Positions 2,560 to 30,132 of a stretch of DNA of 30,132 nucleotides are shown here, piece after piece (positions within the stretch are counted from its first letter, which is position 1; the number at the start of each line of letters is the position of its first letter). Under the pieces are notes generated by a model. It made no database searches. It saw only the letters and a program-made list of their open reading frames with translations, and had not been told where the DNA came from. Source of the stretch: a virus (lineage: Duplodnaviria; Caudoviricetes); the IMG/VR virus record IMGVR_UViG_3300033067_000617, positions 1 through 30,132 of that record, one strand, 5' to 3'. A program made the position numbers and the translations under genes.

Positions 2560-3591
2560 ATGGCAACTCAAAGCTATAACACCGAATCGCAACGAATCGG
2601 TAAGTACAAGGGCCAGATTCTCGGCCACGCAATCCCGCAGGAAGTGTCGGGCCGCTTCGGCGTGAAAAAGGAAATCCCGAAAAACTCCGGCGACACCATC
2701 ATTCTGCGCCGCTGGCTGCCGGCAGGTGCAACCGCATCCAGCCCGAACATCTGGAGCGTTGACCCGGCCAAGCACACCATCCAAGAGGGTGTGACTCCGA
2801 ACGCTGAAACCATCAAGCCGCAGGATATCCAGGCAACGCTGCAGGAAATCGGCGTGGTGTATCGCTACACCAACCGCGTGGCGGATCTGTACGAGGATGA
2901 TGTGCCGGCTGAAATCGTGCAGCTGACCGGTGAGCGCATGGGCTTGGTGCAGGAACTGATGCGCCTGGGCGTGCTGCGTGCTTGCCCCAACGCCTTCTAT
3001 GCCGGCGGCGTGGTTTCGCGTGCATCGATTGTCAGCAAGATTACGCCGAACCTGCTGCGCAAGGTGGCGCGTTCGTTGAATACCAATCTGGCTCGCCGCA
3101 TTACCAGCGTGCTGGATGCCAGCCCGAAGGTGAACACCTACCCGATTGAAGCGGCGTATGTGGTGCTGTGCCATTCGGATTGCGAGGCGGATCTGCGTAC
3201 CGAGCTGCCTGGCTTCAAGCACGTGAGCGAATACGGCCAGCGCCAGGCGGTTCACGAAAACGAGCTGGGTTCGTGGGAGCAGTATCGCTTTATCTGCACC
3301 CCGCACATGCCGGTGTATCTGGCCGGAGGTGGCGCTGTTGGCGCAACCGGTCTGGTTGGTACGGTCAATATCGATGTTTACCCGATGATTGTGCTATCGC
3401 AGGAAAGTTATGGCGACGTTGCGCTGCGTGGCAAGTCGTCGCTGAACGTGGGCCACCAGCCTGCCAATCAGAAAACCAAGGACGACCCGCTGGGCCAGCG
3501 TGGCGTTATCTCGGCATCGACCTACTACACCGCTGTGCGTCTGAATGACCTGCAGATGGCCGTGGTTGAGGTTGGCGTTACCGCTCTGTAA
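2560..3591 (+). CDS. Major capsid protein, N4-gp56 family
   Basis: IPKNSGDTIILRR, EGVTP, ENELGS, DVYPMIV and DDPLGQRG motifs characteristic of N4-gp56-family capsids; strong SD. Confidence 0.9.
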   Translation: MATQSYNTESQRIGKYKGQILGHAIPQEVSGRFGVKKEIPKNSGDTIILRRWLPAGATASSPNIWSVDPAKHTIQEGVTPNAETIKPQDIQATLQEIGVVYRYTNRVADLYEDDVPAEIVQLTGERMGLVQELMRLGVLRACPNAFYAGGVVSRASIVSKITPNLLRKVARSLNTNLARRITSVLDASPKVNTYPIEAAYVVLCHSDCEADLRTELPGFKHVSEYGQRQAVHENELGSWEQYRFICTPHMPVYLAGGGAVGATGLVGTVNIDVYPMIVLSQESYGDVALRGKSSLNVGHQPANQKTKDDPLGQRGVISASTYYTAVRLNDLQMAVVEVGVTAL

Positions 3592-5247: not shown

Positions 5248-5913
5248 ATGAGCTATCTGACACTGCTTCAAGACCTGCACCGCGAATCAGGAATTGCAGG
5301 CGCTGCGCCGACCAGTGTAACCGGCTTGAGTGGCATGCCGGCCAAGCTGGCGGCGTGGATCGCGTCTGCGTGGCAAGAGATTCAGTCTGCGCGCAAGTGG
5401 GCATTTCTGCGCAAAGAGGCGGACGTGCTGCTGACTGCCGGCAAGCGCGATTACATGCTGCTGGCTGACTTCGGCCTGTCTGATGTGCGCGAGATTGATC
5501 AGACGTTTGCTGCGGTGATGTTGCCCGATGGTTCGGACATGGGGCGGCTTTCGTGGCTTCCGTACACCGATTTCCGCGACCGCTATGGGCTGAGTACACC
5601 AGACACTGCGCGGCCATCGGTGGCAACGCTGATCCTGCCGACGCAATTGCGGATCAACACCTTGCCGGATCAGGATTACAAGCTGCGTATCAGCTACTGG
5701 CGCACGGCGACGGTGCTGGCGGCGGCGAGCGATGAGCCAACCATCACGGCGGAAGAACAGGCCGCGATTCTCTGGCGTGCGTTGATGTTCTACGCGGCGC
5801 ATGAGGGCGCAGCGGACGTGTTTGCCGATGCCCAAGCCAAATACAAATCCGCATTCGCGTTGCTTGCACAACGCTATCTGCCGCAGATCGGCTTCGGAGC
5901 GCCATTGGTATGA
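5248..5913 (+). CDS. Head-tail adaptor (tail tubular protein A-like)
   Basis: Size 221 aa, position before the nozzle gene, MSYLTLLQDL...WAFL...PD..Y pattern. Confidence 0.65.
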   Translation: MSYLTLLQDLHRESGIAGAAPTSVTGLSGMPAKLAAWIASAWQEIQSARKWAFLRKEADVLLTAGKRDYMLLADFGLSDVREIDQTFAAVMLPDGSDMGRLSWLPYTDFRDRYGLSTPDTARPSVATLILPTQLRINTLPDQDYKLRISYWRTATVLAAASDEPTITAEEQAAILWRALMFYAAHEGAADVFADAQAKYKSAFALLAQRYLPQIGFGAPLV

Positions 5914-13175: not shown

Positions 13176-13964
13176 ATGGGCGGATTCGTAGAGGCAATGT
13201 TGGGTGCCGGCATCGGCGCGGCAGGCTCGGTGGTAGCCAATGCCAAGCATGATCAGCAGCAACTGGATGCGGATGCGGCAGAAGGCCGGATCATGAACCG
13301 AGAGGCGGCGCTGATGTATCTGCGCGACAAGTACGCCAAAGGCCAAGCGGAATATGGCGACAAGCTAGCCCGTGGGCGGGCAGAGCATCAGCAGAAACTG
13401 CAACTGGATGGGCTGAATGCGCCGCAGGCCGTTGAGGCAGAGCAGCGCAAACGGCAAAGCGAGATTGATGATTACGACATCAAGAGCGACATCGATCAGT
13501 ATAAATGGGCGAATCAAAACAAAGTTACCCACAAGCAGGCGCTGGAGTTGCTGGAGAAACAACAAGCGGGCCAGAGAAGCCTGCTCAATACGAGGCTGGC
13601 TGCGAAAGGCGGCAAATCCGGTGGCGCAGATGACGACGAGCTTGGCAATCCGGACTTTGTTGAGGGCCGCAAAGACCTGTATTCGTACCTTGGCGTTGAT
13701 GATGACCCATCGAAAGTGAATTTGTTGGCGGCACGACTTGGGTTGCCTGAAAAAGCCAAGCCGAAGGACGCGCGTGAGGTGCTGAAAGCAGCAACCTATG
13801 TACTGTCAGCCAACCCGAATCTTGCGCCAGATGAGGCGCTGCAGATGGGTAAGGACTTGGCCTACAAGAAAACCAAACTAACCACGGCAACGCTGCCAAA
13901 TGGCCAGCGTATGCAGTATTTCAACGTCGATGGCCGGCGCTACGGTTACGGCCGCCCCAACTAA
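13176..13964 (+). CDS. Putative ejection protein
   Basis: Gly-rich hydrophobic N-terminus followed by coiled coil. Confidence 0.6.
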   Translation: MGGFVEAMLGAGIGAAGSVVANAKHDQQQLDADAAEGRIMNREAALMYLRDKYAKGQAEYGDKLARGRAEHQQKLQLDGLNAPQAVEAEQRKRQSEIDDYDIKSDIDQYKWANQNKVTHKQALELLEKQQAGQRSLLNTRLAAKGGKSGGADDDELGNPDFVEGRKDLYSYLGVDDDPSKVNLLAARLGLPEKAKPKDAREVLKAATYVLSANPNLAPDEALQMGKDLAYKKTKLTTATLPNGQRMQYFNVDGRRYGYGRPN

Positions 13965-13987
13965 ACAACACGCTCCCCAATTCAATC

Positions 13988-14018
13988 AGGCCCGGCACTC
14001 GTCGGGCCTTTTGTTTTT
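13988..14018 (+). terminator. Rho-independent terminator
   Basis: AGGCCCGGC-ACTC-GTCGGGCCT followed by TTTGTTTTT, just before the SD of the giant gene. Confidence 0.75.
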
Positions 14019-14028
14019 CTGAGGCCAA

Positions 14029-17000
14029 ATGTCCAAGAAGAAAGTTGTATTCGACGCCTATGCGTTGCTGAACTCGCCGGAAATGTCCGCCTATCTGGAT
14101 AAGCAGGAAGCCGAACAGGCCGAGCAGAAAAAGAGGCTTGTCGCTGAACAAGAGGCGAAGCAGCGCAAAACAGGTGGCCAGCAATCCCGTTCGGTGTCTG
14201 ATGACGAGTTATCGCCAGAAGCGTTGAGGCGCGACAACATCAGCCAGACAACAGGCGATATTACAGGCCGTGCAAACGATGTATGGCAGGCGCTCAAGAG
14301 TGGTGGTGCGACACTGATTCAGGGTGCTGGCTGGCTAGCGAACGAAGCCGGCGCGCATGATTCTGGCCAGTTCCTGCAGGACATTGGCCAGATCGGACAA
14401 GAGCAGGCGCTGGCCAACATGACGCAAGCCGGGCGTGAGGCGCAGAAGAACGGGGTGTTCAAGGAGGATCTGAGCGGCGTCAATGATGATTGGGGCCGTG
14501 GCATGGCGCAAGGCATTGCCGGATCTGCTGTGCCGTCGATTGTCGGTGCCATGCTGGGGGCGCCGATTGCGCGTGGCATTGGTGCAGCGGGTGAGGCGGT
14601 GCTTGGCCGTGCGGTGGTATCTGATGGCGCGCTGGGTTCGGTGCTGGATGCGGCAACAAAATACACCCCCGCACCTATCATGCGTCTGACTGGCGCATTG
14701 CCTGGCGCTGCGGGAGCGGGCGCGGGTGAGGCTGCAGTGACTGGCGCAACCAATGGCGCGCAGGCATATCAGGAAGTGATGGACGCGCCGATTGAATCGC
14801 TGCGCAAATCGCCGGCATTCCAGAGCCTGAGCAAAGAGCTTGGCAGCGAGGATGCGGCACGCAAGGCCATTGCCGACCGTGTGTCGATCCAGACCGCAAA
14901 GGACACTGCGCTGTCTACCGGCCTGATTGGCGCGGCAATGGGCGGCGGTGCAGTCGGTTCGCTGCTGAACAAGTTTGCCGTCAAGCAGGGCGCCAAGGAA
15001 GTTGGCAAACTTGGCGCCAAGGCTGCTGCAAAAGAAGTGCTGAAAGATGGCGCAAAGGAGTTTGCAGAGGAATTCGCGCAATCCGGCCCGGAGCATTACC
15101 TGCAGAATGCCGCCAAACGCGATTACCTTGACCCGACCATCGACCCGTCAACCGGCATGTTGCGCGCTTCGCTGGAAGGTGGCGTAGTTGGCATGGGCCA
15201 GGGCATGGGGATGTCGGGTGGTGCGCATGCCGTGAATCACCTGCTGACGCGAAACGATCCGCAGCCAGCAAAACAACCACAGCCGCAACCACAACCCGCG
15301 CCAGTTGCCACGCCAGAATCCGTTGCCGGTTACGACCCCATCGCGCCGAATCAGGCCGATCTGCTGCGCCGCATGGGTGTTGAGGCTGACCCGGTAGCGG
15401 ATGCAGCCGCAGCATCGGTGGAATCGGTGCTGGGCGCTGGCGACCCGACCGCCGGGCTAGTGGCCAGCGTAATGCGTGGCGAGGCGCTGCAGCCTATCCA
15501 CGATATGGCGGCGGTGCGCGCCAATACGGTGTTGCCGGTCGGATCGAATGAGGGCGGGCTGTATGAGCCGCAATGGCTGCCGGATGCAGAGCAAGGCGAA
15601 TCGTCCAACGGCATGCGGATGCCGCGCCGTGGCTTCGACTCGCAGGAGCAAATGCTTGCCAATGCCGGCATGGATGCCCGCGACGTACAGCGCAAGGCGG
15701 ATATCGCCAGCCAGGTTGATGCCGCATGGGCGCAGCAACAAAACCCGGTTCAGAAGGCCCGCGAACTGGAATCGCTGGCGCAGGAATCGGCCGTGCCGGT
15801 GGCGATTGATCGTGCAGAACAGTCGAACCAGATCAATCAGGTATTGGCGAATGCGGCCGGTGAAGGCGAGTCGGTGCCGAATGCGATGCAGTTGGCGCTG
15901 CAGCGGGCGCAGAATCAGGGCGCGGCGGCAAAACCTGAAGAAAATACGCAAAAAACCGCAAAAAGTTTCATGACCGATGGCGCATCGGATGTGGTAGCAC
16001 CACAAACAATCACGTCACAGCATGGCATTGCACATGCCATTACCGAGCCGGATCAGGCCGATACAGCTCCGAACATTTCTGACAAAGCTCCGAGTATTCC
16101 GGCTCCAGCTCCGAACATTTCCAGCGATCCGGCGCTCACCATGCAGCAAACCGAGCGCGGCCAGTGGCTGATCAAGGGCGACATGGCGCAGCATGCCGGT
16201 GCTATTCGTGACGCGCTCAAGGGTATGAATGTACTCGTCAGCCCGAAGAAAGGGCAGGCGCTGGTGGCGATGCCGAAGGACAAGGACACCAGCAAGCAAG
16301 CGAAGGCTATCCGCAAGGCGCTGGATCATCTGCTGTTGAACGGCGAGCAATTGGCGCAACGTGACGCGCAACGCGCCCAAGCCGGTGAACGCATGCAGGC
16401 GCGGAACAAGCAGGCGCTGCAGGTTGATCATGCTAACGACGACATTTTGCAGGCCATTGCAAAAATGGGCGGCATCGACACCGAGCAGGCGCTGTCTGAG
16501 TGGTGGCGCGGTCAGTCAGAAACTGTCGGCCATTACAACGCAGAGGTGCCGGGCAATCTGCGCCGGCAAGGTGCGTTTGCCTTCAAGCGCGGCGGCCAGC
16601 CGATTGACACCGTGATTCGCCGGCTGGAAGGTGAAGGCTATTTGCCGGAAGGCGCAACGCCGAATGATCTGCTGGATGCCATCGAGCAACGCCGGCTGCA
16701 CCCGGCCGGCATGGAAGAACAGGCCCGCCGCGAATTTGATGCCCGTCAGCAAGAAGAACAGGCCAATGCACCGGGCGAGTTTCAGCAGGCGTATGATGAG
16801 GGCAGGTTTGCGGATGAATTTACCAAGCGCGAACTGGAAGAAGAAACCGATTATTTTGAGTTGAATCGCCAGAATCGCGAAGCCGCAGAGGATGCCGCAG
16901 CGACGGCAGAAGCGGCCGAGCTAGACAGACTTATTGATAACGCCCCGGTGATTGCAAGCAAATCCGGGCCAGTGACAGAGGAAGAACTAGATGCCATCTT

Positions 17001-20000
17001 CGGCCAACAACCGAGAAACACCGCAGCAGAAGGCACGCAGACTGATCGAGAGCCTGCCGCCGGAAGATCAATGGAAGGTACTGAAAGTGGCACGGCAACT
17101 GCAGAAGCTGCGCCAGAAGAAGATGGATTCGGCCTTGCCGGCTACACAGAAAGCGATCTCCGACGCGAAGAACGGGCCGCCGAGCAACAGCAACGAGAAG
17201 TAGAGCGCCAGCGCGCCGCTGCCGACAAGGCGCGCCAGGACGAGGAAACCCGCAAGGAAATCCGCCGCCGCTCTGAGGCTGCGGCTGATACGTTCACGCT
17301 GGGCGGAAACGCCGAGGACAATCTGACCGGGCAGGGCGGGTTGTTTGATGCGCCGGCGGAATCGAGTAGCGAACAAAATGCCGACCGCTCGCCGGAAAAA
17401 GTGCCAGATTTGGCACCAAATGCGGCGAGTAGCGCGGAAATGGACGCGCTTAAAGCGGAAATGGGCGATGCAATTGGCGAACTGGCATCGATCCTTGGTG
17501 CGCGCAAAAACCTGACGCCAGAAGAAGAATCGAGAATCATCCCGGTCATGTCCAAGATTTTCCGGATCGCGGCCAAGATGGGGTTTGTGAAGTTCCGCGA
17601 CGCGGCGCAGCATGTGATGAGCCAGATCCGACAGCTGGCCGGTGACGAAATCGCGGACAAGCTGAGCATTGATAACCTGCAGGCTGGGTATATCAACATT
17701 GCCAGCGAGATTGGCGGTGATAAGCGCGAAGCGCTGGCGTATGATTCAATTGAGCAACTAGAGAAAGATAAAGATCATGTCACTGACCAGCGTAGCGGCT
17801 CCGATCTGGAACGAAATAGCGCAGACGCAACACCTGAAAACGGCGTGGGCGCGCAAGGCGTTCGCGCTGGACGGGCAGGGAATGGCCGAACTGGAAGATC
17901 AGGAGTGGAAAGCACTCAAGGCGAAGTCGGACAGCGAGACAGCATCGGCCCTGATGAACGTGAAGCCGCTGATTCTGGAGAACGTAGCGATAGCGAAGTT
18001 TACGCAGGATCACCCATCGTTACGCCAGGTTCTGCCGGAAGTCGTGTCGATATCGGAAGCACTGATTCTGGCATCCCAGGATTACCCGTTGAACCGCAAG
18101 CAACAAGCCAGATTGCGCGAGTTGCTAAAAGCGACCATCGAAAACAGTTAGCCAAGGACGAGCAGCGAGAGGCCGACAAGCACGCAGCCAATGCGAGCGT
18201 TGCCGATGCGCTGCCGATCCTGACAGAAGGCCAGCAACAGGACGTGGTGAAGGCCGAGGCGCGTTTCGCATTGCCAGATGGCTACGGCATGCTGTTCACC
18301 AATGGCACCGGCACAGGCAAGACCTTTACCGGGCTGGGTGTTATCAAGCGGTTCGTCAATAACGGCAAGACCAATATCCTTGTCGTTGCACCTAACGACA
18401 AAATCATTGAGGACTGGCAGCGATCCGGCAAGATGCTTGGGCTGGATCTGGCGCGACTGGCAAACACCAGCGAAGCAGGCAAGGGGCTGGTGATCACCAC
18501 CTATGCCAACATGGGGGCCAATAACGCTCTGGCTGGACGGGATTGGGATCTTGTTGTTCACGACGAGGCGCATTACCTTGCCATGGACAAGGACGGCACC
18601 AATACCAACGCGCTGAAAGTGTTGCGCGCCATTTCCTTGCACCATGACGGCGCCTACCATCGCCACGCCATGCTGAACGCTGACGAGATTGCACTGGCCA
18701 ATCGCCTTGCCAAAGAGGCCGAGATGCAGCGCACGTCTGACAACGAGCAGGAGTGGTATCTGGCCAATGAGACACAGGCCAAGGCGGACAAGCTCGCCAA
18801 TGAGTTGAGCAAGAAGCTGGACGCCATCAAGGCGGATGTGGCGTCGCGCCAGGGTGCGGCACGCACGCGGGTTGTATTCCTTTCTGCCACGCCTTTTGCC
18901 TACGAAAAAACCATCGATTGGGCGAACGGCTACCTGTTTGACTACAACGAAGGCCGCAGCAACGAGGAAAACAGCTATCGCGGCTACAACCAAGGCAGCA
19001 ACCGCGAGCAGTTTTTCATGCAGCACCTTGGATACCGGATGCGCTACGGCAAGCTGACAGCGCCGGATGCCAAGGTGGATGCCGGGCTGATGCAGCGCCA
19101 GTTCAATGCCTACCTGAAAAAGAAAGGATCGCTGTCTGGTCGCATGCTGGACGTGAAAGCGGACTATGACCGCCGCTTTATTCTGGTGGATTCCGCCATT
19201 GGCAAGCGCATCGATGATGCTTTCGAGTGGCTGAGAGACAAATCAGCCGGCACCGATGCGTCAGCGACAGAATATCGGAGCATGATCGACCATCTGTATG
19301 AAAAGTTCGATTATCTGGCGCGGCGCTATCTGCTGGAATCGATCAAGGCGCGTGAGGTTGTGCCGCATATCCGTGAGCACATGGCGCTAGGTCGGAAAGT
19401 CGTTGTTTTCCATGACTACAAAAAAGGCGGCGGATTTAACCCATTTATTTTCAGCGGCGAAATGTTCGACCACAACGCCGTTGACGCCTTCAATCAAGAA
19501 TTCCGCGACATCATCAATTCCAGTCTTTTCCGCCAGTCATCACCGATTGATATGTTCAAGCAGGAGTTTCCTGATGTGCTGCTGTTCAATGGCGACGTGC
19601 CAGCCAATCAGCGCCGCGCCAATGTGGCGAAGTTTCAGGATGACGCCAGCGGGCCGCAGATCATCCTGGTTCAATCGGCCGCAGGCAAGGAGGGGATTAG
19701 CCTGCACGACACAACCGGCAAGCATCAGCGCGTGCTGTTCAATCTTGGCCAGCCGACGCAACCCACCACCGCGATTCAGCAAGAGGGCAGGATCTACCGC
19801 ACCGGGCAGGTGACGGATGCAATTTTCCGCTACTTGAACACTGGCACCAATTGGGAAAAATTGGCGTTCGCCACCACTATCGCCCAGCGCGCCAGCGCGG
19901 CTGAGAACCTTGGCATGGGCGAAATGGCGCGTGCGCTGAAAGACGCATTCATTGCTGGTTTCGAGGAATCCGACAACTACCGTGCGGGCATGGAAGGCGA

Positions 20001-23000
20001 AGGCAAGGGAGGCAAGGAGCGCGACCGTGCTGCGAATGATGCGCTGACAGAATACGATCGAGCGCGTTCGTTCTACTTCGGCACCCAAAAGAAAAACGCA
20101 CAGACCAAGGCCAAAGAAGGCAAGGACTACTTTGCCACGCCTGAGCCGGTCGGCCTGAAAATGGCCGAGTTTGCCGATGTGCGCCCAGGCGAGTCTGTAC
20201 TGGAGCCTTCTGCCGGGCATGGTGCGATTGCGCGCTGGTTTCCGGAGGATGCAAACCGAACCGCCATCGAACCAAGTACCGCGCTGCGCGCACGGCTGGC
20301 AATGGTGTTTGATGGCAAGATCATTGACTCTGACTTTGAAGGTCACAACATCGTCAACAAGTACGATGCGATTGTGATGAACCCGCCATTTGGCGTTGGC
20401 GGAAAGACGGCCGTTGATCATTTGTCCAAGGCTGCTGGTCATCTGCGCGAAGGCGGTCGAGTCGTTGCGCTGCTGCCATCCGGGCCGGCTGCCGACAAGC
20501 GGCTGGACAATTTCCTGTATGGCGAAACAGAGCGCGAGGTGAAGCCACTGCTGGAGCACCCAACGCTTGGGCCTGTGTACCGTGGCGACACAGTGAGCAC
20601 CAACGCGGCATGGGCAAAGCAAGGCGTGCTATCCCGCAAAGACCGTGGCGGCGGATACTGGCTTGAAGTAAAGACCCCTTCAGGAAAATCAGAATACCAG
20701 GTGAATCCTGCCGCATGGACGGCCGTTGAAGCAACAGGCAAGCGCAAGGAGACATATCGCCCGGCTGGTGATCTGTCGCTTGTGGCGGATATCAAGCTGC
20801 CATCTGTCACGTTCGAGCGCGCAGGCACCGGTGTTATGACGCACATTATCGTGCTGGAAAAGGGCAAGGCTGGCGCAGAGGCAGACGTTCAACAGGTTAA
20901 TCGTGATCTGGCTGGAATAGACAACATCAATGATCTATTCAAGCGCATGGAGAACATGACGCTGCCCAAGCGAGTCAACGCGGCTGAGCCACGTATTCAA
21001 GAATCTTCCAGCGAGAGTGGCGCCGTTGAATCTTCCGGCCCGGAAGCAGGCGCCAGTGGGCTGGACATTGTTGAGCACACCACCGCCAAGGGGAAAGTGC
21101 TGCGCGGAGTGATCCGCACCGATCTGACCCAGGCACAGGCAAAAGAGATTGACCCGTACACGTTCAAGAAAGATGGCGGGTATTTCATCAGGGATAGATA
21201 CTTAGGGCAAGGCGGCACACTCAACAGCACAGCCAGCCACACCACAACACAACAACGCATGACACAGCAGCAGCTGCAGGATCTGCTTCACAAGGCCGTG
21301 CCGCCGCATTTGCGCGGCATGATCAAGGTGGCGCAGAGCCGCAACGCCGAGACAGGTGGCAGCAACACCCATCAATCCACGGCCGACGAGGTGATTGACG
21401 ACGTTGAGGCCACCTACGACCCGACGACAAACGAAATCACCTTCTACGCTGACGCGATGGATTCGCCAGAGCGCGCCTTGTTCGTGCTCTCGCATGAGCT
21501 GACCCACTACGGCCTGGATGCGAAATACGGTTTTGGCCTATCCAATATCCTGCTGGAAACCCGCAACAACCCGATGATTGCCAAGCTGGCGGCGGCCATT
21601 GCCGTTGACAGAAGCATGACCGTCAACAGCGTGCGCCAGGATATTGCTGACGCGCTGGGCGTACCGGTTGCCCGCATAGCCCGGAGCGCGGCCATTCATC
21701 GCCTGCAAGTTGAAACCGCCAACGAGGCATTGGCCGAGCTGAATGCCGCCATCGAGCGCGACGACTTCGCCTATCTGCAGGAGCGTTATGGCGTGGCCGT
21801 GCCGAAGATGATGCGCAATGATCTGCGTGGCCGGCTGGCGCGCCTGACGGCTTCGGTTAAAGCATGGCTGGCCAAATTGACCGGCAAGCAAGCCACCGAA
21901 TACAGCGATAAGCAGGTTTGGGATTTGCTGGCTGGGGTGCGGGAAACGGTGCGTGGTGGCGGAAAGTTGTCTGCTGGGTATCGTGATGGCGCTGCACAGC
22001 ACAGCATGGCCGCGTCATCGAAAACAATCAACATTGACGGAGTGACACGCCCGACTACCAACAGCAACGGCAAGCCTATCGCACAGACCGAAGAAGGGCT
22101 GCGCAACTTCTGGCGCTGGTTTGGTGATAGCAAGGTGGTGGATAAGGATGGCAAGCCGCTGGTGGTGTATCACGGCACGGAGTCGGATTTTGATAGCTTT
22201 GACCAGAACAAGGTAAAAACCACAAAGCTAGGCTCTGGATTCTATTTTGCGAAAGACCCCGAAACGGCCAATCTGTATGCCGGATTCTCTGGCAGCAACG
22301 TGGTACCCGTATATCTGCGCATGGAACGCCCGCTAATTGCGTCTAGCGTAGAAGAAGCCCGGCAGATTCTGGAAGATAACGGCCAGTACATGAACATTGA
22401 TGAATTCAGTGGGACGCACGCCGCAGACATGGCAGACGTCTTGGCTAAAGCAGGGTTCGATGGGATCATGTACGACGGCGTTATGGTGGTTCAAAACCCC
22501 ACCCAAATCAAATCCGCCGTGGGCAACCAAGGCACATTCAATGGCAGCGCCCCTAACATTCTGCGCAGTACCGCCCCCAAACAACCCGCTTCGGCGGGTT
22601 TTTCTTTGCCAGAAGAAACCAAAGCCCATGCCACACAGCGCGAAGTGCAGGACAACATGAACCGCTGGCGTCAGGTACTGGAGAATGTGCGCGAGCAGGG
22701 CGGGCAGGTTGACGAGCAGAACGACGTGTACGGCGCAGAAGAACGTTTCCACGGCCGGACGGCAACGCGCATTGAGGACTTTGCGCGGGATGAGGTGGAG
22801 CCGCTGATGCAACGCCTGGCCGATTCTGGCCATTCGCTGCAGGATGTTGAACAATATCTGCTGGCGCAGCACGCCGAAGAAGCCAACGCCCGTATTCGTG
22901 AAATCGACGATAGCCGCGACACGGCTTTCGGCATGGAAGATGGCGAGGCGCAATCGATCCTGGCGAAGTTTGCCGCCATGCCTGACGCTGCCGAATTCAA

Positions 23001-25335
23001 ACGGCTGGCCAATGATTTCCGCCGCATTTCCGAAGGCACGCTGTCGCTTTATGTGAAGGCCGGCATTGTGTCGCCAGAAGCTGCGCATGCAATGCGGATG
23101 GCGTATCAGTTCTATGTGCCGGTTAAGGGTGGCGACGAGGATCAGGCCGCACGCCAAGGCACTGGCAAGGGTTTGAGCGTGAACGGCAAGCAAAAGCGCC
23201 GCATGGGCCACGATATGCGCGATGAGCATGTGCTTGAGAACATGCTGCGCGACCGTCAGCGCGCCATTGTTCTGGCCGAGAAAAACAACGTCGGCACCTA
23301 TCTGCTGGATCTGATCGAGCGCAACCCTGATCCGAAGCTATGGACGGTGAATGTGCTGCCGAAACAGAAGGTGCTGCGCGATCAGGTGTCGTATGTGGTT
23401 GAACTGAACGGCCAGATGCTGGACGCATTCAACAGCATGGAGGCGGCCCGCGTGTTTATCCAGGCCGAGGCGGCGCGCACAGGCAGCAAGCCAGGCGCGT
23501 TTGCCGTGTCGAAATCGTCTGATCCCTATGTGTCGATGATGGCCAAGCCAACCCTGCAGGATCATGAGGTGCAGGTTTACGTGCAAGGCCGGGCGGTACG
23601 TATCCAGTTGCACGATCCAATCCTGGCTGGCCAGTACCGGCGCATGGGTACGGAGCAGATGGGGCGGATTATCGAGGCGGGCAAATCACTGAACCGCTGG
23701 CTATCCAAGGTCTACACCGGCTACAACCCGGAGTTTTTCGTCAAGAACGTGGTGCGCGACCTGTTCGCTGGCACGATCAATCTGACAGCAGACCAAGGCG
23801 CAAAGGTGACGGCGCGGGCCTTGTGGCACTGGCCAAAGGCGGGCGCAGCGATGTTCAAGTTTGCGCTGACCGGCAAGGCGCCATCCGGCGACTATGGCAA
23901 GGCATTGCAGCGTTACCGTGCGGCTGGCGGATCTACAGGCGCCGCCTACATGGGCGACCTGGAGCGCCAGGCAAACACGCTGACGGAGCTGTACGAGAAC
24001 TATACCGGTGCGATGGCAACGCTGCAGCAGGGGAAGCCGTTCAAGGCGGCGCGCATCGCCGGTCGTAAGCTGGTACAAGGTTTGGCGCACTGGTTCGAGG
24101 TATGGAATCAAGCCGGTGAAAGCGCATTCCGCCTGGCCACCTTCATGGCCATGCAGGAGAGCGGAAAGACCGTGGCAGAATCGGCCAGCATGGCGAAAAA
24201 CGTAACGGTGAACTTCAACCGAAAAGGCGAGTTGACCCCGCAACTTGGCGCGCTGTATCTGTTCTTTAATCCGAACGTGCAAGGTTCGCAGCGGCTGTGG
24301 CAATCGCTATTCGGCGGCGACACCAAACACAAGGCGCAAGCATGGGCCTTGGTCGGCTCGATGGCGGGCGCCGCATTGGCGCTGGCGATGATGAATCGCG
24401 GCGACGACGAAGATGAATGGGAGGCTATCCCTGATAGCACGAAGGATCGCAACCTGATTATCCCGCTGGGCAACAAGCGCAAGCTGACCATCCCGCTGCC
24501 GTATGGCTATAGCTTCTTCGTTTCGATGGCAAACCGGCTTGATGCGTTAATGCACGGCGAATCGGCCGAGAAAGCCAGTATTCGCATGGCTTCCAGCTTC
24601 TTCGAGAACTTTAGCCCAGTCGGCAATCCGATTGGCGATGATCCGAAGTTGGAAAACATGCTGATGCTATTGCCAACTGCAATCAAGATCCCTGCCCTTC
24701 CGGCTGCCAACATTACTGATTTTGGCGGGCCGATGCGACCTGATTACAAGGAAACTCAGCCTGACAACGAAAAGATGTGGCGCGGCACACGCGGCAGTCT
24801 GTATGACAAGGCAGCACAAGGCATATCCAGCCTCTATGGATCGCCATATGAGAACAACTGGAACGATATCAGCCCGGAAACCATCAAATATCTGTTCAAA
24901 ACGCTGGCTGGCGGAACCGGTGGGTTTATGGCTGATTCGGCATCGCTGCTGAATGTGTTGGCCAGTGGCAGTGCGCCCGACGTGTCCGAGGTGCCTTTCC
25001 TTCGATCTGCCGTGCGCGAATCGACAGTAAAAGACGCCCGCGCCCGATTCTACGATTTGGGCAAGGACGCCAAAGGCCACGTCGAAGCATGGAATCGTGC
25101 CGTTGAGGCCGGCGACGACAAGGCTGCGACAGAGTACGAGCAGGATGGCGAGCTGATGGCACTAGGCCAAATGATGGACGGCTACCGCAAGCAGGCGACT
25201 GCATTACGGGATTTGATGGCGCTGGAAATGCAGCGCGAGGATCTGACGCTGGCGGAAAAGCGGATGAAGCAGAAATCCTACGAGAGCCAGGAGGCCGAGA
25301 TTTACCGCGAGTACATCCGCCAGTTCAAGCACTGA
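14029..25335 (+). CDS. Large polyvalent (DarB-like) virion-ejected protein, 3768 aa
   Basis: SF2 helicase, N6A-MTase, HExxH peptidase, ART-like and LPD38-like motifs in one ORF; SD GAGG; last gene of the ejection cluster. Confidence 0.9.
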   Translation: MSKKKVVFDAYALLNSPEMSAYLDKQEAEQAEQKKRLVAEQEAKQRKTGGQQSRSVSDDELSPEALRRDNISQTTGDITGRANDVWQALKSGGATLIQGAGWLANEAGAHDSGQFLQDIGQIGQEQALANMTQAGREAQKNGVFKEDLSGVNDDWGRGMAQGIAGSAVPSIVGAMLGAPIARGIGAAGEAVLGRAVVSDGALGSVLDAATKYTPAPIMRLTGALPGAAGAGAGEAAVTGATNGAQAYQEVMDAPIESLRKSPAFQSLSKELGSEDAARKAIADRVSIQTAKDTALSTGLIGAAMGGGAVGSLLNKFAVKQGAKEVGKLGAKAAAKEVLKDGAKEFAEEFAQSGPEHYLQNAAKRDYLDPTIDPSTGMLRASLEGGVVGMGQGMGMSGGAHAVNHLLTRNDPQPAKQPQPQPQPAPVATPESVAGYDPIAPNQADLLRRMGVEADPVADAAAASVESVLGAGDPTAGLVASVMRGEALQPIHDMAAVRANTVLPVGSNEGGLYEPQWLPDAEQGESSNGMRMPRRGFDSQEQMLANAGMDARDVQRKADIASQVDAAWAQQQNPVQKARELESLAQESAVPVAIDRAEQSNQINQVLANAAGEGESVPNAMQLALQRAQNQGAAAKPEENTQKTAKSFMTDGASDVVAPQTITSQHGIAHAITEPDQADTAPNISDKAPSIPAPAPNISSDPALTMQQTERGQWLIKGDMAQHAGAIRDALKGMNVLVSPKKGQALVAMPKDKDTSKQAKAIRKALDHLLLNGEQLAQRDAQRAQAGERMQARNKQALQVDHANDDILQAIAKMGGIDTEQALSEWWRGQSETVGHYNAEVPGNLRRQGAFAFKRGGQPIDTVIRRLEGEGYLPEGATPNDLLDAIEQRRLHPAGMEEQARREFDARQQEEQANAPGEFQQAYDEGRFADEFTKRELEEETDYFELNRQNREAAEDAAATAEAAELDRLIDNAPVIASKSGPVTEEELDAIFGQQPRNTAAEGTQTDREPAAGRSMEGTESGTATAEAAPEEDGFGLAGYTESDLRREERAAEQQQREVERQRAAADKARQDEETRKEIRRRSEAAADTFTLGGNAEDNLTGQGGLFDAPAESSSEQNADRSPEKVPDLAPNAASSAEMDALKAEMGDAIGELASILGARKNLTPEEESRIIPVMSKIFRIAAKMGFVKFRDAAQHVMSQIRQLAGDEIADKLSIDNLQAGYINIASEIGGDKREALAYDSIEQLEKDKDHVTDQRSGSDLERNSADATPENGVGAQGVRAGRAGNGRTGRSGVESTQGEVGQRDSIGPDEREAADSGERSDSEVYAGSPIVTPGSAGSRVDIGSTDSGIPGLPVEPQATSQIARVAKSDHRKQLAKDEQREADKHAANASVADALPILTEGQQQDVVKAEARFALPDGYGMLFTNGTGTGKTFTGLGVIKRFVNNGKTNILVVAPNDKIIEDWQRSGKMLGLDLARLANTSEAGKGLVITTYANMGANNALAGRDWDLVVHDEAHYLAMDKDGTNTNALKVLRAISLHHDGAYHRHAMLNADEIALANRLAKEAEMQRTSDNEQEWYLANETQAKADKLANELSKKLDAIKADVASRQGAARTRVVFLSATPFAYEKTIDWANGYLFDYNEGRSNEENSYRGYNQGSNREQFFMQHLGYRMRYGKLTAPDAKVDAGLMQRQFNAYLKKKGSLSGRMLDVKADYDRRFILVDSAIGKRIDDAFEWLRDKSAGTDASATEYRSMIDHLYEKFDYLARRYLLESIKAREVVPHIREHMALGRKVVVFHDYKKGGGFNPFIFSGEMFDHNAVDAFNQEFRDIINSSLFRQSSPIDMFKQEFPDVLLFNGDVPANQRRANVAKFQDDASGPQIILVQSAAGKEGISLHDTTGKHQRVLFNLGQPTQPTTAIQQEGRIYRTGQVTDAIFRYLNTGTNWEKLAFATTIAQRASAAENLGMGEMARALKDAFIAGFEESDNYRAGMEGEGKGGKERDRAANDALTEYDRARSFYFGTQKKNAQTKAKEGKDYFATPEPVGLKMAEFADVRPGESVLEPSAGHGAIARWFPEDANRTAIEPSTALRARLAMVFDGKIIDSDFEGHNIVNKYDAIVMNPPFGVGGKTAVDHLSKAAGHLREGGRVVALLPSGPAADKRLDNFLYGETEREVKPLLEHPTLGPVYRGDTVSTNAAWAKQGVLSRKDRGGGYWLEVKTPSGKSEYQVNPAAWTAVEATGKRKETYRPAGDLSLVADIKLPSVTFERAGTGVMTHIIVLEKGKAGAEADVQQVNRDLAGIDNINDLFKRMENMTLPKRVNAAEPRIQESSSESGAVESSGPEAGASGLDIVEHTTAKGKVLRGVIRTDLTQAQAKEIDPYTFKKDGGYFIRDRYLGQGGTLNSTASHTTTQQRMTQQQLQDLLHKAVPPHLRGMIKVAQSRNAETGGSNTHQSTADEVIDDVEATYDPTTNEITFYADAMDSPERALFVLSHELTHYGLDAKYGFGLSNILLETRNNPMIAKLAAAIAVDRSMTVNSVRQDIADALGVPVARIARSAAIHRLQVETANEALAELNAAIERDDFAYLQERYGVAVPKMMRNDLRGRLARLTASVKAWLAKLTGKQATEYSDKQVWDLLAGVRETVRGGGKLSAGYRDGAAQHSMAASSKTINIDGVTRPTTNSNGKPIAQTEEGLRNFWRWFGDSKVVDKDGKPLVVYHGTESDFDSFDQNKVKTTKLGSGFYFAKDPETANLYAGFSGSNVVPVYLRMERPLIASSVEEARQILEDNGQYMNIDEFSGTHAADMADVLAKAGFDGIMYDGVMVVQNPTQIKSAVGNQGTFNGSAPNILRSTAPKQPASAGFSLPEETKAHATQREVQDNMNRWRQVLENVREQGGQVDEQNDVYGAEERFHGRTATRIEDFARDEVEPLMQRLADSGHSLQDVEQYLLAQHAEEANARIREIDDSRDTAFGMEDGEAQSILAKFAAMPDAAEFKRLANDFRRISEGTLSLYVKAGIVSPEAAHAMRMAYQFYVPVKGGDEDQAARQGTGKGLSVNGKQKRRMGHDMRDEHVLENMLRDRQRAIVLAEKNNVGTYLLDLIERNPDPKLWTVNVLPKQKVLRDQVSYVVELNGQMLDAFNSMEAARVFIQAEAARTGSKPGAFAVSKSSDPYVSMMAKPTLQDHEVQVYVQGRAVRIQLHDPILAGQYRRMGTEQMGRIIEAGKSLNRWLSKVYTGYNPEFFVKNVVRDLFAGTINLTADQGAKVTARALWHWPKAGAAMFKFALTGKAPSGDYGKALQRYRAAGGSTGAAYMGDLERQANTLTELYENYTGAMATLQQGKPFKAARIAGRKLVQGLAHWFEVWNQAGESAFRLATFMAMQESGKTVAESASMAKNVTVNFNRKGELTPQLGALYLFFNPNVQGSQRLWQSLFGGDTKHKAQAWALVGSMAGAALALAMMNRGDDEDEWEAIPDSTKDRNLIIPLGNKRKLTIPLPYGYSFFVSMANRLDALMHGESAEKASIRMASSFFENFSPVGNPIGDDPKLENMLMLLPTAIKIPALPAANITDFGGPMRPDYKETQPDNEKMWRGTRGSLYDKAAQGISSLYGSPYENNWNDISPETIKYLFKTLAGGTGGFMADSASLLNVLASGSAPDVSEVPFLRSAVRESTVKDARARFYDLGKDAKGHVEAWNRAVEAGDDKAATEYEQDGELMALGQMMDGYRKQATALRDLMALEMQREDLTLAEKRMKQKSYESQEAEIYREYIRQFKH
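16065..16122 (+). repeat. Three direct repeats at 21-bp period inside the giant gene
   Basis: AGCTCCGAACATTTC (16065), AGCTCCGAGTATTCC (16086), AGCTCCGAACATTTC (16107). Confidence 0.85.
16991..17203 (+). CDS. Putative nested +1-frame small helical protein
   Basis: SD GAGGA at 16978-16982; ARRLIESLPPEDQWKVLKVARQL amphipathic helices; host frame is a disordered linker here. Confidence 0.5.
   Translation: MPSSANNRETPQQKARRLIESLPPEDQWKVLKVARQLQKLRQKKMDSALPATQKAISDAKNGPPSNSNEK
17717..17745 (+). promoter_or_regulatory. Putative internal sigma70 promoter for the nested gene
   Basis: GTGATA-N17-TATGAT, 31 nt upstream of ATG 17777. Confidence 0.5.
17777..18151 (+). CDS. Putative nested +1-frame 124-aa alpha-helical protein
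   Basis: Globular composition with genome-typical codons (CTG, GCG, CCG, AAG), while the host frame uses GGA, CGA, AGA and ACT and is low-complexity. Confidence 0.7.
   Translation: MSLTSVAAPIWNEIAQTQHLKTAWARKAFALDGQGMAELEDQEWKALKAKSDSETASALMNVKPLILENVAIAKFTQDHPSLRQVLPEVVSISEALILASQDYPLNRKQQARLRELLKATIENS
18200..19960 (+). other. SF2 helicase domain (strawberry-notch-like) of the giant protein
   Basis: Walker A GTGTGKT (~18304), DEAH (18562), SATP (18883), GISLHD (19693), QQEGRIYR (~19777). Confidence 0.85.
20125..20865 (+). other. N6-adenine DNA methyltransferase domain of the giant protein
   Basis: DYFATP, VLEPSAGHG (motif I), NPPF (20380, motif IV), TFERAGTGV. Confidence 0.9.
21400..21760 (+). 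other. Zincin-like metallopeptidase (MPTase) domain
   Basis: EATYDP...HELTH (21493-21507) with downstream EALAE. Confidence 0.7.
22090..22560 (+). other. ADP-ribosyltransferase-like (ART-PolyVal-type) domain
   Basis: FWRWFGDSKVVD, VYHGT, GFYF, PVYL, GFDGI, PTQIKS motifs. Confidence 0.75.
22583..22607 (+). terminator. Intragenic rho-independent terminator in the giant gene
   Basis: AACCCGC-TTCG-GCGGGTT followed by TTTCTTT; cUUCGg tetraloop. Confidence 0.65.
23650..25335 (+). other. LPD38-like C-terminal region
   Basis: YNPEFFVKNVVRD, VTVNFNRKG...LYLFFNPNVQG, IPLPYGY; boundaries approximate. Confidence 0.65.
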
Positions 25336-25680
25336 TCAGTTGCAGACCCGCGAATAGCCACTGCCGGTACACATCTTGCCGGTGCCGTAGTTGTAATAGG
25401 TGTTGCTGTCGCGGTTATAGTTCCACATATTGCCATCGGCATCGGTGCCGCTCTGGTTGCCGCTCCGGTCGCTGTGGCTGCGCCACTGGCTGCCGGTGTT
25501 GGCGTTGTTGCCGTAAGTATCGCTGGAGCCATCTGCATAGCGGCTGGTGTTGGTCATATTGCCGGTGGCTGGGTCATAGTGGCTGCTGCTGCGCGGCGTG
25601 CGTGGCTTGTATTCGTATGGGTTATCCCATGCCAGTGCGTTGCCGGCCAGCAGTGCCAGGATCAGGGCGGATAGTTTCAT
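25336..25680 (-). CDS. Small exported protein (moron)
   Basis: Signal peptide MKLSALILALLAGNALA; SD AAGGAG; C-terminal Cys pair. Confidence 0.8.
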   Translation of the reverse strand: MKLSALILALLAGNALAWDNPYEYKPRTPRSSSHYDPATGNMTNTSRYADGSSDTYGNNANTGSQWRSHSDRSGNQSGTDADGNMWNYNRDSNTYYNYGTGKMCTGSGYSRVCN

Positions 25681-29333: not shown

Positions 29334-29722
29334 TCCAAACCTCCCAAAATCTCGCGCTCGATGTTATTAAGCATTTGCAAGACGCCATAAAGCTGCTGCT
29401 GCCACAATTGGCACTTGCGCATTTCCAGTGGCTTCGTATCGCTCCATCCGGCCGGAAGCCCCATCATCCACTCTTGAATAAGCGGGTTTGGCCGACCAAA
29501 AACCTTCTTGAATGCCCTCGCACTCGGCCACTTTTGCATTGATTGTGCGCAGTAATTTGCTTTTGTCGTTGGCGTATGCAAGTAACCAATATCGTTCCCG
29601 AACGTGGTCTGCACCCAAGTCTGCCGCACTAAGGGAAAGCATTTCGGCTTTGTAACCCAAACTGGCGCAATCCTTTGCGGCCCGCTCAATGGCATCTGAA
29701 GAAACGTTTTCTGCGAATACAT
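29330..29722 (-). CDS. Putative C5-MTase beta polypeptide (motif IX), overlapping frame
   Basis: SD GGAG 7 nt before ATG; PNPLIQEWMMGLPAGWSD resembles motif IX. Confidence 0.65.
   Translation of the reverse strand: MYSQKTFLQMPLSGPQRIAPVWVTKPKCFPLVRQTWVQTTFGNDIGYLHTPTTKANYCAQSMQKWPSARAFKKVFGRPNPLIQEWMMGLPAGWSDTKPLEMRKCQLWQQQLYGVLQMLNNIEREILGGLE
29339..29363. repeat. 25-bp direct repeat, copy 1
   Basis: ACCTCCCAAAATCTCGCGCTCGATG. Confidence 0.95.
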
Positions 29723-30050
29723 AATCAGTCTCCGATTCTGTGATTACCCTGAACATTTCAGGCCAAAGGTTTTTGGCATCAATATTTCTACCTCGCGCCG
29801 CCGTGCTAAATGCTTGGCAGGGAAACCCTCCAGACACGAAATCACATCTGCCGCGCCACGCTCTGCCGTCAAAGGTACAAATGTCATCCCATACAGGGAA
29901 AACGGCTCCAAGCGATCCGTCATTTTGTCGCCGTGTAAGAACGCATCTGCGGTGCCAATCCAACTCGACAGCGCAGACCGTTCTAAGTCCAAGTGATGAG
30001 GTGCCAAGTATTCCTGCACCAATGCCCGCGAAAAGAGCCAACTCATTCAA
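29367..30050 (-). CDS. DNA (cytosine-5) methyltransferase alpha polypeptide
   Basis: Probable TTG start after GGAGG; motifs LFAGIG (I), GFPCQ (IV), ENV (VI), HVRER (VIII), GNAQVP (X); no motif IX. Confidence 0.85.
   Translation of the reverse strand: MNELALFAGIGAGILGTSSLGLRTVCAVELDWHRRCVLTRRQNDGSLGAVFPVWDDICTFDGRAWRGRCDFVSGGFPCQAFSTAARGRNIDAKNLWPEMFRVITESETDYVFAENVSSDAIERAAKDCASLGYKAEMLSLSAADLGADHVRERYWLLAYANDKSKLLRTINAKVAECEGIQEGFWSAKPAYSRVDDGASGRMERYEATGNAQVPIVAAAALWRLANA
29744..30046 (-). CDS. Overlapping ORF in the same frame as the beta polypeptide
   Basis: ATGA-coupled to the upstream gene; separated from 29330-29722 by a single TAA. Confidence 0.4.
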   Translation of the reverse strand: MSWLFSRALVQEYLAPHHLDLERSALSSWIGTADAFLHGDKMTDRLEPFSLYGMTFVPLTAERGAADVISCLEGFPAKHLARRREVEILMPKTFGLKCSG

Positions 30051-30132
30051 CTTGACCTCCCAAAATCTCGCGCTCGATGGCGCGCACTGCATGCTTCATT
30101 TCCTCAATGGGTTTGTGCATCGAGTAGTTTTT
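30043..30132 (-). CDS. Partial hypothetical gene (3' end)
   Basis: Open from the window edge: ...HAVRAIEREILGGQVE*. Confidence 0.6.
   Translation of the reverse strand, partial: KNYSMHKPIEEMKHAVRAIEREILGGQVE
30055..30079. repeat. 25-bp direct repeat, copy 2
   Basis: Identical to 29339-29363. Confidence 0.95.

Follow-up and report, generated by a model that had tools for sequence, protein, structure and literature searches.

A conserved +1 reading frame nested within the giant polyvalent protein gene of a temperate phage, upstream of its helicase-methylase module

The nested frame and its outer frame

The window analysed here is the whole 30,132-base stretch of the virus record IMGVR_UViG_3300033067_000617, which is estimated to be 53% complete, and it derives from a temperate phage. 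On its + strand, capsid and tail genes lead into a giant open reading frame (ORF); an antirepressor and an integrase are encoded 3' of it on the opposite strand. Entirely within the giant ORF, in its +1 frame, lies a second ORF that runs from the ATG at 17777 to the TAG at 18151 and encodes 124 amino acids (aa). We regard this nested ORF as a real gene almost beyond doubt. The original prediction, made from the letters of the window, had proposed such a gene and let it end where the helicase of the giant begins; the stop codon is indeed located about 33 nucleotides (nt) before the conserved helicase-methylase module (about 18184) and 150 nt before its Walker A motif (18301). All coordinates are collected in Table 1.

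Codon usage moves to the nested frame over this span, as had been expected. The nested frame has a synonymous-codon score of 0.117 and a GC content of third codon positions (GC3) of 0.70, whereas the outer frame has -0.112 and 0.40; 17 of 18 reference genes score between 0.089 and 0.322, and the remaining one, a C-5 cytosine methylase gene, scores -0.162. The outer frame had been described as rich in Gly, Ser, Arg and Asp and in uncommon codons, and this is what we observe: the four residues make up 46% over the nested span versus 27%, and the codons GGA, CGA, AGA and ACT account for 19 of its 124 codons, compared with 63 of 3644 elsewhere (Fisher p 6e-12), with AGA occurring only once. The length of the nested ORF was rejected as evidence, since the giant contains two longer stop-free +1 runs (166 and 140 codons) with no sustained codon switch. 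A contig of run X15 is identical to the window over 17300-18700 (possibly the source of this DNA), and a contig of run X2 spans the ORF without insertion or deletion. As both keep the same frame structure, an assembly slip is unlikely.

Searches with the nested protein returned matches of 30-38% identity in five phage records, and a search with a database homolog returned eight; in a profile search the family comprises 557 clusters at 50% identity. All 27 distinct loci of the first helicase-anchored round (two duplicates left out) carry a homologous +1 ORF. Selection was assessed on 48 nonredundant copies of less than 90% identity, out of 59; their kinship lowers the independence of the counts that follow. 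Mean amino acid identity is 0.39 in the nested and 0.25 in the outer frame, the nested value being higher in 1127 of 1128 pairs, and the third codon position of the nested frame is the most variable one in 812 of these pairs. Among 46 close pairs, the 25 closest have a ratio of nonsynonymous to synonymous differences per site (pN/pS) between 0.33 and 0.73 in the nested frame, as opposed to 0.97 to 2.11 in the outer frame. The outer frame is stop-free over the nested span in relatives, yet its sequence is not conserved: no stop occurs at 1595 junctions where 128.7 would be expected, and none occurs in 25 low-GC copies of a second set (104.3 expected), a set that was chosen as nested. In a control on 257 stored loci, which are redundant, the nested frame matches 198 and its outer frame 29, versus 27 for a chance +1 ORF in the helicase and 244 for the outer frame there. 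These comparisons indicate that the nested frame is selected for its protein sequence and the outer frame only to stay open. Because the outer frame is kept free of stops, the giant is probably translated through the nested gene, with the overlap read as a (disordered) linker.

Near-invariant residues of the family are W11, N12, A15, P64, L65, E68, A71, L86, P87, E94, L105, L113 and L117. Of 88 family copies, 87 have an ATG close to where the profile starts, and a Shine-Dalgarno (SD) pairing of -3.4 kcal/mol or stronger precedes 45 of the 48 copies versus 30% of 852 control ATGs; in a second set the numbers are 75 of 87 relatives versus 527 of 1872 control ATGs. The SD of the window itself is weak, as had been noted, although the family is enriched for it. 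The locus therefore presents an inner ORF inside an open outer ORF, with a start and SD of its own and selection on both frames. It had also been anticipated that annotation pipelines overlook the gene, and none of nine opened annotated records holding its sequence lists it. Cultured phages that carry it without annotation include Skulduggery (on Pseudomonas fluorescens SBW25), Parlo and 45A6.

A promoter of its own, likewise claimed for the nested gene, is less clear. The proposed site exists at the proposed distance, and it is the sole sigma70-like site in 13900-25500; shuffled sequences yield 4.4 +/- 2.3 sites, so that the site in the window alone is at chance level. Among relatives, sites matching at least 8 of 12 positions within 80 nt upstream of the nested ATG are about threefold enriched (19 of 87 relatives versus 41 of 609 tiles further upstream, and also versus 133 of 2509), in a set that includes a near-identical relative of the window and whose members are not independent. 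In several relatives a box resembling TACAAT or TATAAT lies 17-49 nt upstream of the ATG. No promoter-like site is present in 47 of the 87 relatives (22 of 48 in the other set), and the sites present vary in sequence and spacing. An internal promoter is thus possible in a subset of relatives, while internal initiation on the mRNA of the giant would be the simpler default. The RNA runs are available as assembled contigs, whose ends at 17746, 17722 and 17388 are uninformative on the transcript start.

Table 1. Features of the window, with the nested gene and the elements around it (positions count from the first base of the window)
Feature	Position	Strand	Remarks
Nested gene	17777..18151	+	124 aa, +1 frame relative to 14029-25335, seven helices (model), unnamed family
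Outer-frame reading of the nested span	17776..18147	+	aa 1250-1373 of the giant; G/S/R/D-rich linker, hydrophobe-poor
Weak ribosome-binding region of the nested gene	17757..17772	+	purine-rich; -2.9 kcal/mol, family median -6.5 to -7.0
Putative sigma70-like site GTGATA-N17-TATGAT	17717..17745	+	9/12 match, 31 nt before the nested ATG
Giant polyvalent protein gene	14029..25335	+	3768 aa, outer frame, downstream of capsid and tail genes
Helicase-methylase module of the giant	18184..20628	+	superfamily 2 (SF2; SWI2/SNF2-related) helicase-like ATPase, then N6-adenine-type methyltransferase; aa 1386-2200 of the giant
Unnamed outer-frame domain	17434..17775	+	aa 1136-1249 of the giant; just 5' of the nested ATG
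Second nested +1 ORF	16991..17203	+	70 aa, codon switch, SD -6.0
ART-PolyVal domain of the giant	22141..22539	+	aa 2705-2837; no +1 codon switch flagged there
LPD38 domain of the giant	24409..25002	+	aa 3461-3658
Major head protein	2560-3591	+	PHROG match; upstream of the giant
SU10 adaptor	5248-5913	+	Pfam match; upstream of the giant

Linkage to the helicase-methylase, fold and origin

The module that follows the nested gene carries, besides Walker A (aa 1425 of the giant), a DEAH motif at aa 1512 and an NPPF motif at 20380 (aa 2118). Its best match among PDB sequences is a helicase of the Snf2/Rad54 family (E 8.7e-12), and M.TaqI is matched weakly (E 0.008). Pfam matches of the giant comprise LPD38 (E 3e-30) and ART-PolyVal (E 3e-27) as well as helicase and methylase. 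Because it combines several unrelated effector domains, polyvalent-specific ones included, with a setting among late virion genes, the giant is a polyvalent protein in the sense of PMC5512222. By analogy with P1 DarB (PMC9024508) and phi24B gp47 (10.64898/2026.04.10.717836), it would be packaged in the virion and ejected into the host.

With the small protein as query, 49 loci were recovered from viral contigs. In 48 of them the gene lies inside an outer frame that also encodes the same helicase; the remaining locus is truncated by a contig end. Starting from the helicase, 160 loci were found, of which nine without the Walker A pattern were dropped and the remaining 151 collapsed to 100 nonredundant ones. 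Among these the nested gene is present in 89 of 89 polyprotein forms, from 28% to 69% GC, and in none of 11 short stand-alone forms. Of the polyprotein loci, 88 have a long N-terminal extension with the nested gene, and one has the gene nested but is frameshifted afterwards. At that locus (L119:7520-8120) the nested gene is intact, and the frameshift just after it, either a sequencing error or a natural break, splits the N-terminal part of the giant from the helicase.

The short forms (loci within L098-L116) are mostly of low GC and encode a helicase followed by a methylase in about 850 aa, one of them cut by a contig end. No homolog of the small gene was found in their flanks of up to 8 kb. 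Five of the seven annotated short-form loci sit among replication or recombination genes, and the other two, L104 and L106, show no named function among their neighbours (55 of 124 ORFs scanned). A stand-alone helicase-methylase on an Aquimarina plasmid (L096:6902-9463) also has no small gene in the whole record. In two prophage-like regions of Acinetobacter, where the host ORFs measure 1276-1336 aa, the nested gene is present. Among 50,697 phage records, the identical eight contain both the small gene and the complete module, and 334 contain the giant's C-terminal region; away from this helicase the small gene was not found in the viral and phage collections. The nested gene is thus a companion of the polyprotein form, whereas some other copies of the enzyme lack it. 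The original prediction had called it a dedicated partner of the helicase-methylase. Co-occurrence in all 89 polyprotein loci and in the same eight records speaks for this claim, and the 11 viral and one plasmid stand-alone copies without the gene limit it. Upstream of the nested gene, the outer-frame sequence is of several kinds among relatives (judged by eye), so that the upstream outer domain is not a constant neighbour.

The helical composition that had been read from the nested frame is reflected in an AlphaFold2 model with seven helices, a predicted local distance difference test (pLDDT) of 94.9 and a predicted template modelling score (pTM) of 0.84. Neither Pfam nor PHROGs matched the nested protein, and Pfam gave weak, scattered matches for 17 family members. 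The best PDB sequence match has an E of 0.27, and the ESM Atlas provided no usable match. In structure comparisons, Foldseek gave nothing at E 0.001 or better (best E 0.98 in PDB and 0.32 among viral structures), and VIA-align nothing at Z >= 5 among 48,161 chains (best Z 4.5, root-mean-square deviation 5.0, 99 residues aligned). The absence of a family or fold match is no proof of a new fold. A DNA mimic was considered and is unlikely, with a family median net charge of -4. A description of the family is absent from the literature searched (main texts of open-licence PMC and bioRxiv papers), and in the announcement of phage Parlo only the giant is mentioned (PMC6606913).

Copies of the small protein also occur outside the nested arrangement. 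Two rounds of sampling covered 800 genomes; they gave matches in four and in two genomes, the central one counted each time, and at six new places, less duplicates. Five other genomes have a match, in two places free-standing: L092 (G231:C344:83-439) and L091:13518-13937 (G517), both in bacterial genomes and each near a contig end, with no helicase in the stretches fetched around them. The copy at L091 has a primase-like gene nearby and follows a gene for a Sel1-like repeat protease (by eye). At L092 the former outer frame has four stops while the small protein is intact, which suggests that the protein serves a purpose even where the giant is missing, as would be expected of an inhibitor. In addition, the longer database proteins P0127, P0167, P0201, P0207, P0232, P0248 and P0191 fuse the small domain to sequences resembling the upstream domain of the giant, the helicase start or other nested ORFs. 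Of these, P0201 is chromosomal in Bradyrhizobium japonicum, P0207 stands for 23 cluster members, and P0167 has no match in the viral contigs.

In a tree of 131 columns, with many forks left open and a midpoint root, the free-standing copies are interspersed with the nested ones, as are 18 database proteins that are extended or fused, and there is no separate free-standing group. The free and fused copies thus look like escapes, derived rather than ancestral. The nested frame had been held to be the ancestral gene; codon use and selection fit this view, but no surviving free-standing group attests to it. We infer that a small gene and a helicase-methylase once formed an operon, which was absorbed into the polyprotein via read-through of the -1 frame of the small gene.

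Proposed role and alternatives

The interpretation we prefer, with about even confidence, is that the 124-aa protein binds the helicase-methylase and holds the enzyme in a folded, silent state during production and packaging of the giant. Ribosomes would initiate internally on the late mRNA of the giant, such that the partner is made when and where the giant is made. The small protein would bind the adjoining module and keep it folded but inactive; the giant would be packaged in the virion and later ejected, and with the partner left behind or released the enzyme could act in the next cell. Nesting would tie synthesis of the partner to that of the giant and keep its gene linked to the module while flanking domains are exchanged. 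That a giant packaged helicase-methylase can have a small helper may have a precedent in phage P1: a table in PMC9024508 lists Ulx, a 17-kDa protein, with the entry 'Aids DarB localization'.

Several points weigh against this proposal. In loci L087 and L088 another domain lies between the nested gene and the helicase, and in three viral loci the gene is 880-1440 nt before Walker A, in one more at 899 nt. Pairwise identities of nested protein and helicase correlate only moderately (Spearman coefficient 0.44-0.50, compared with 0.73 between two parts of the module). The small domain is fused to the outer-frame domain from upstream in five of the longer proteins (P0127, P0207, P0167, P0232 and P0201; by eye), a sign that it may have another partner, and the fold and family searches yield no functional lead. 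Moreover, physical linkage alone can hold two parts together, and the 11 short forms, mostly low-GC relatives of one query alignment, may be one lineage, in which case the contrast between polyprotein and short forms may reflect a single evolutionary event.

An unlikely alternative makes the small protein a lysogen immunity factor, expressed in the prophage state from an internal promoter and blocking the helicase-methylase that related superinfecting phages inject. It shares the binding step with the restraint of the enzyme proposed above and differs in timing. The enrichment of sigma70-like sites described above would suit it, as would the integrase and antirepressor of the window, the free copies L091 and L092 in bacterial genomes and the fused P0201 on the B. 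japonicum chromosome. Most relatives, however, have no such site, that of the window is at chance level, the relatives are not independent, and the free copies may be remnants of broken prophages.

It is likewise unlikely that the protein acts as an activating or loading subunit, which is either ejected with the giant and needed for antirestriction or recruits the giant to the capsid as Ulx might in P1. Its presence in polyprotein forms only, the near-invariant polar residues N12, E68 and E94, and the Ulx table entry (PMC9024508) agree with this idea. Against activation, the stand-alone enzymes of about 850 aa exist without the small gene, so the enzyme family does not need the protein; against loading, most of the 334 records with the giant's C-terminal region are without the gene, which is hence no general packaging factor.

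Quite improbable in our judgement is an independent passenger, a useful but unrelated small gene that became caught in the giant through a fusion across it and has since been linked by position alone. Unrelated small genes do occur in the +1 frame of such giants, an HNH endonuclease among them. A scan of relatives found 40 +1 ORFs with a codon switch in 170 kb upstream versus 4 downstream, a count biased by a codon model trained on the downstream region; the scan recovered only 39 of 48 known copies. The fusions to the upstream domain and the moderate co-divergence with the helicase fit a passenger as well. These other nested ORFs vary from phage to phage, though, whereas the main one is kept in every polyprotein form across the whole GC range, and no copy apart from the helicase turned up in the collections of viral and phage sequences.

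Finally, it is very improbable that there is no separate gene, that is, a chance open frame that shadows a hydrophobe-poor linker or the end of a shorter giant reached by programmed +1 frameshifting: where a linker has few codons for Leu, Ile, Val and Met, the +1 frame does stay open (this follows from the code), the two longer +1 runs exist, and P0201, P0193 and P0186 have upstream sequence in frame with the domain, but purifying selection acts on the nested and not on the outer frame, the ATG position is maintained and SDs are enriched, the model folds as a complete domain, and in L063, L065, L068, L071 and L076 an in-frame stop directly before the ATG bars frameshift entry.

Returning to restraint of the enzyme by the small protein, a more far-reaching version can be put forward as a rather doubtful conjecture: the giants might have grown by reading through entire operons, their linkers might generally be -1 readings of hidden small partner genes, every toxic or DNA-acting module might thereby contain its own inhibitor within its gene, and the 124-aa protein, with a new helical fold, might be an off-switch built in for the injected helicase-methylase that lysogens and bacteria employ again for immunity to related phages.

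Long, fully nested same-strand genes are considered rare in phages of bacteria, and examples of nested phage genes are already known (lambda Rz1 and ShiLan). New is a fixed, unnamed, well-folded family of putative partners whose genes sit inside the linker of polyvalent giants. This nesting suggests a way in which such giants may gain modules without losing an intervening partner gene, and that 'disordered linkers' of such proteins may hide genes dropped by annotation. A single base change can remove the nested ATG and leave the giant protein unaltered. If the small protein does restrain the injected helicase-methylase, this would reveal how an enzyme of this kind can be made by a phage without danger to the producing cell.

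Other nested ORFs and known systems

The second nested +1 ORF of the window (Table 1) is linked by BLAST to a single, near-identical phage contig and nothing else, although short, basic, helical ORFs occupy similar places in relatives. Locus L055 (2120-2677) contains a complete HNH endonuclease gene of 185 aa (PHROG 3377, E 1.8e-50) in the +1 frame of a giant whose outer frame is open. This gene resembles the ShiLan element described in PMC11855218. At L063:3842-4000, and likewise in L065, L068, L071 and L076, a +1 ORF of 51-53 aa stops directly before the ATG of the main nested gene and forms a nested run of two genes with it. Upstream of the module in L006 (1541-2032), the +1 frame holds a gene for a ferritin-like protein (Pfam E 1.4e-14); one stop in the -1 frame of this gene implies that the giant frame starts within it. 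Further nested ORFs in the +1 frame, 62-81 aa long and alike in the look of their C-terminal ends, were seen at L020:6913-7158, L023:6908-7120 and L038:1679-1867. They come from Parlo and ZX1, both cultured phages, and from a viral contig, and possibly represent a second nested family.

Further features of the window are a zincin-like HExxH motif, HELTH, at aa 2489 of the giant (about 21493-21507, + strand), which has no Pfam match, and terminator-like hairpins with T runs at 13988-14009 (+), 19 nt before the ATG of the giant, and at 22583-22600 (+), inside the giant just after the ART domain. Sixteen such hairpins were found where 13.8 are expected, and they may be due to chance. The C-5 cytosine methylase gene mentioned above (29367-30092, - strand) has atypical codons and a GC3 of 0.47 and was perhaps acquired recently.

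In phage lambda, Rz1 is fully nested in Rz on the same strand with a start of its own, and its product works together with the outer product. Embedded spanins of the Rz1 type are lipoproteins with a lipobox cysteine. Embedded spanins are also seen in the Parlo record. The gene described here differs in that the outer frame of the overlap appears to be an unconstrained linker within a host gene of 11.3 kb, and in that its 124-aa product is helical, has no cysteine and is not a lipoprotein.

The outer giant resembles the polyvalent proteins of PMC5512222 in its many domains, in ART-PolyVal and LPD38, in combining a helicase with an adenine methylase and in its late-gene setting. In the main text of that paper, 'overlapping' and 'frameshift' do not occur, and 'nested' and 'reading frame' are used of other matters. 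Phage P1 (PMC5512222, PMC9024508) similarly has a giant packaged helicase-methylase, DarB, with a small companion, Ulx; for the giant of the window, packaging is assumed by analogy. Cultured relatives of this giant are annotated 'DarB-like' (PMC6606913), and it shares with the DarB dyad an NPP(Y/F) N6-adenine methylase and a SWI2/SNF2-related ATPase. The DarB dyad consists of LPD36, methylase and then SF2 helicase, whereas in the window the helicase comes first (aa 1425 versus NPPF at aa 2118) and LPD36 is not matched; the giant is not a strict DarB. Ulx is listed as an ORF of its own, number 9 next to darB as number 10 (PMC9024508), whereas the nested protein is encoded within the giant and has no PHROG match.

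The arrangement itself is paralleled in ShiLan, where, according to PMC11855218, an HNH gene lies out of frame inside an actinophage methylase gene and the outer frame runs through as a stop-free loop, as it does here. For the 124-aa family, no HNH signature was seen in Pfam or PHROG matches, and no conserved His in columns of at least 60%; the same PHROG scan does find the HNH gene of L055. The ShiLan gene is described there as a homing element, whereas the 124-aa protein is present in all polyprotein loci rather than patchily and looks like a fixed partner.

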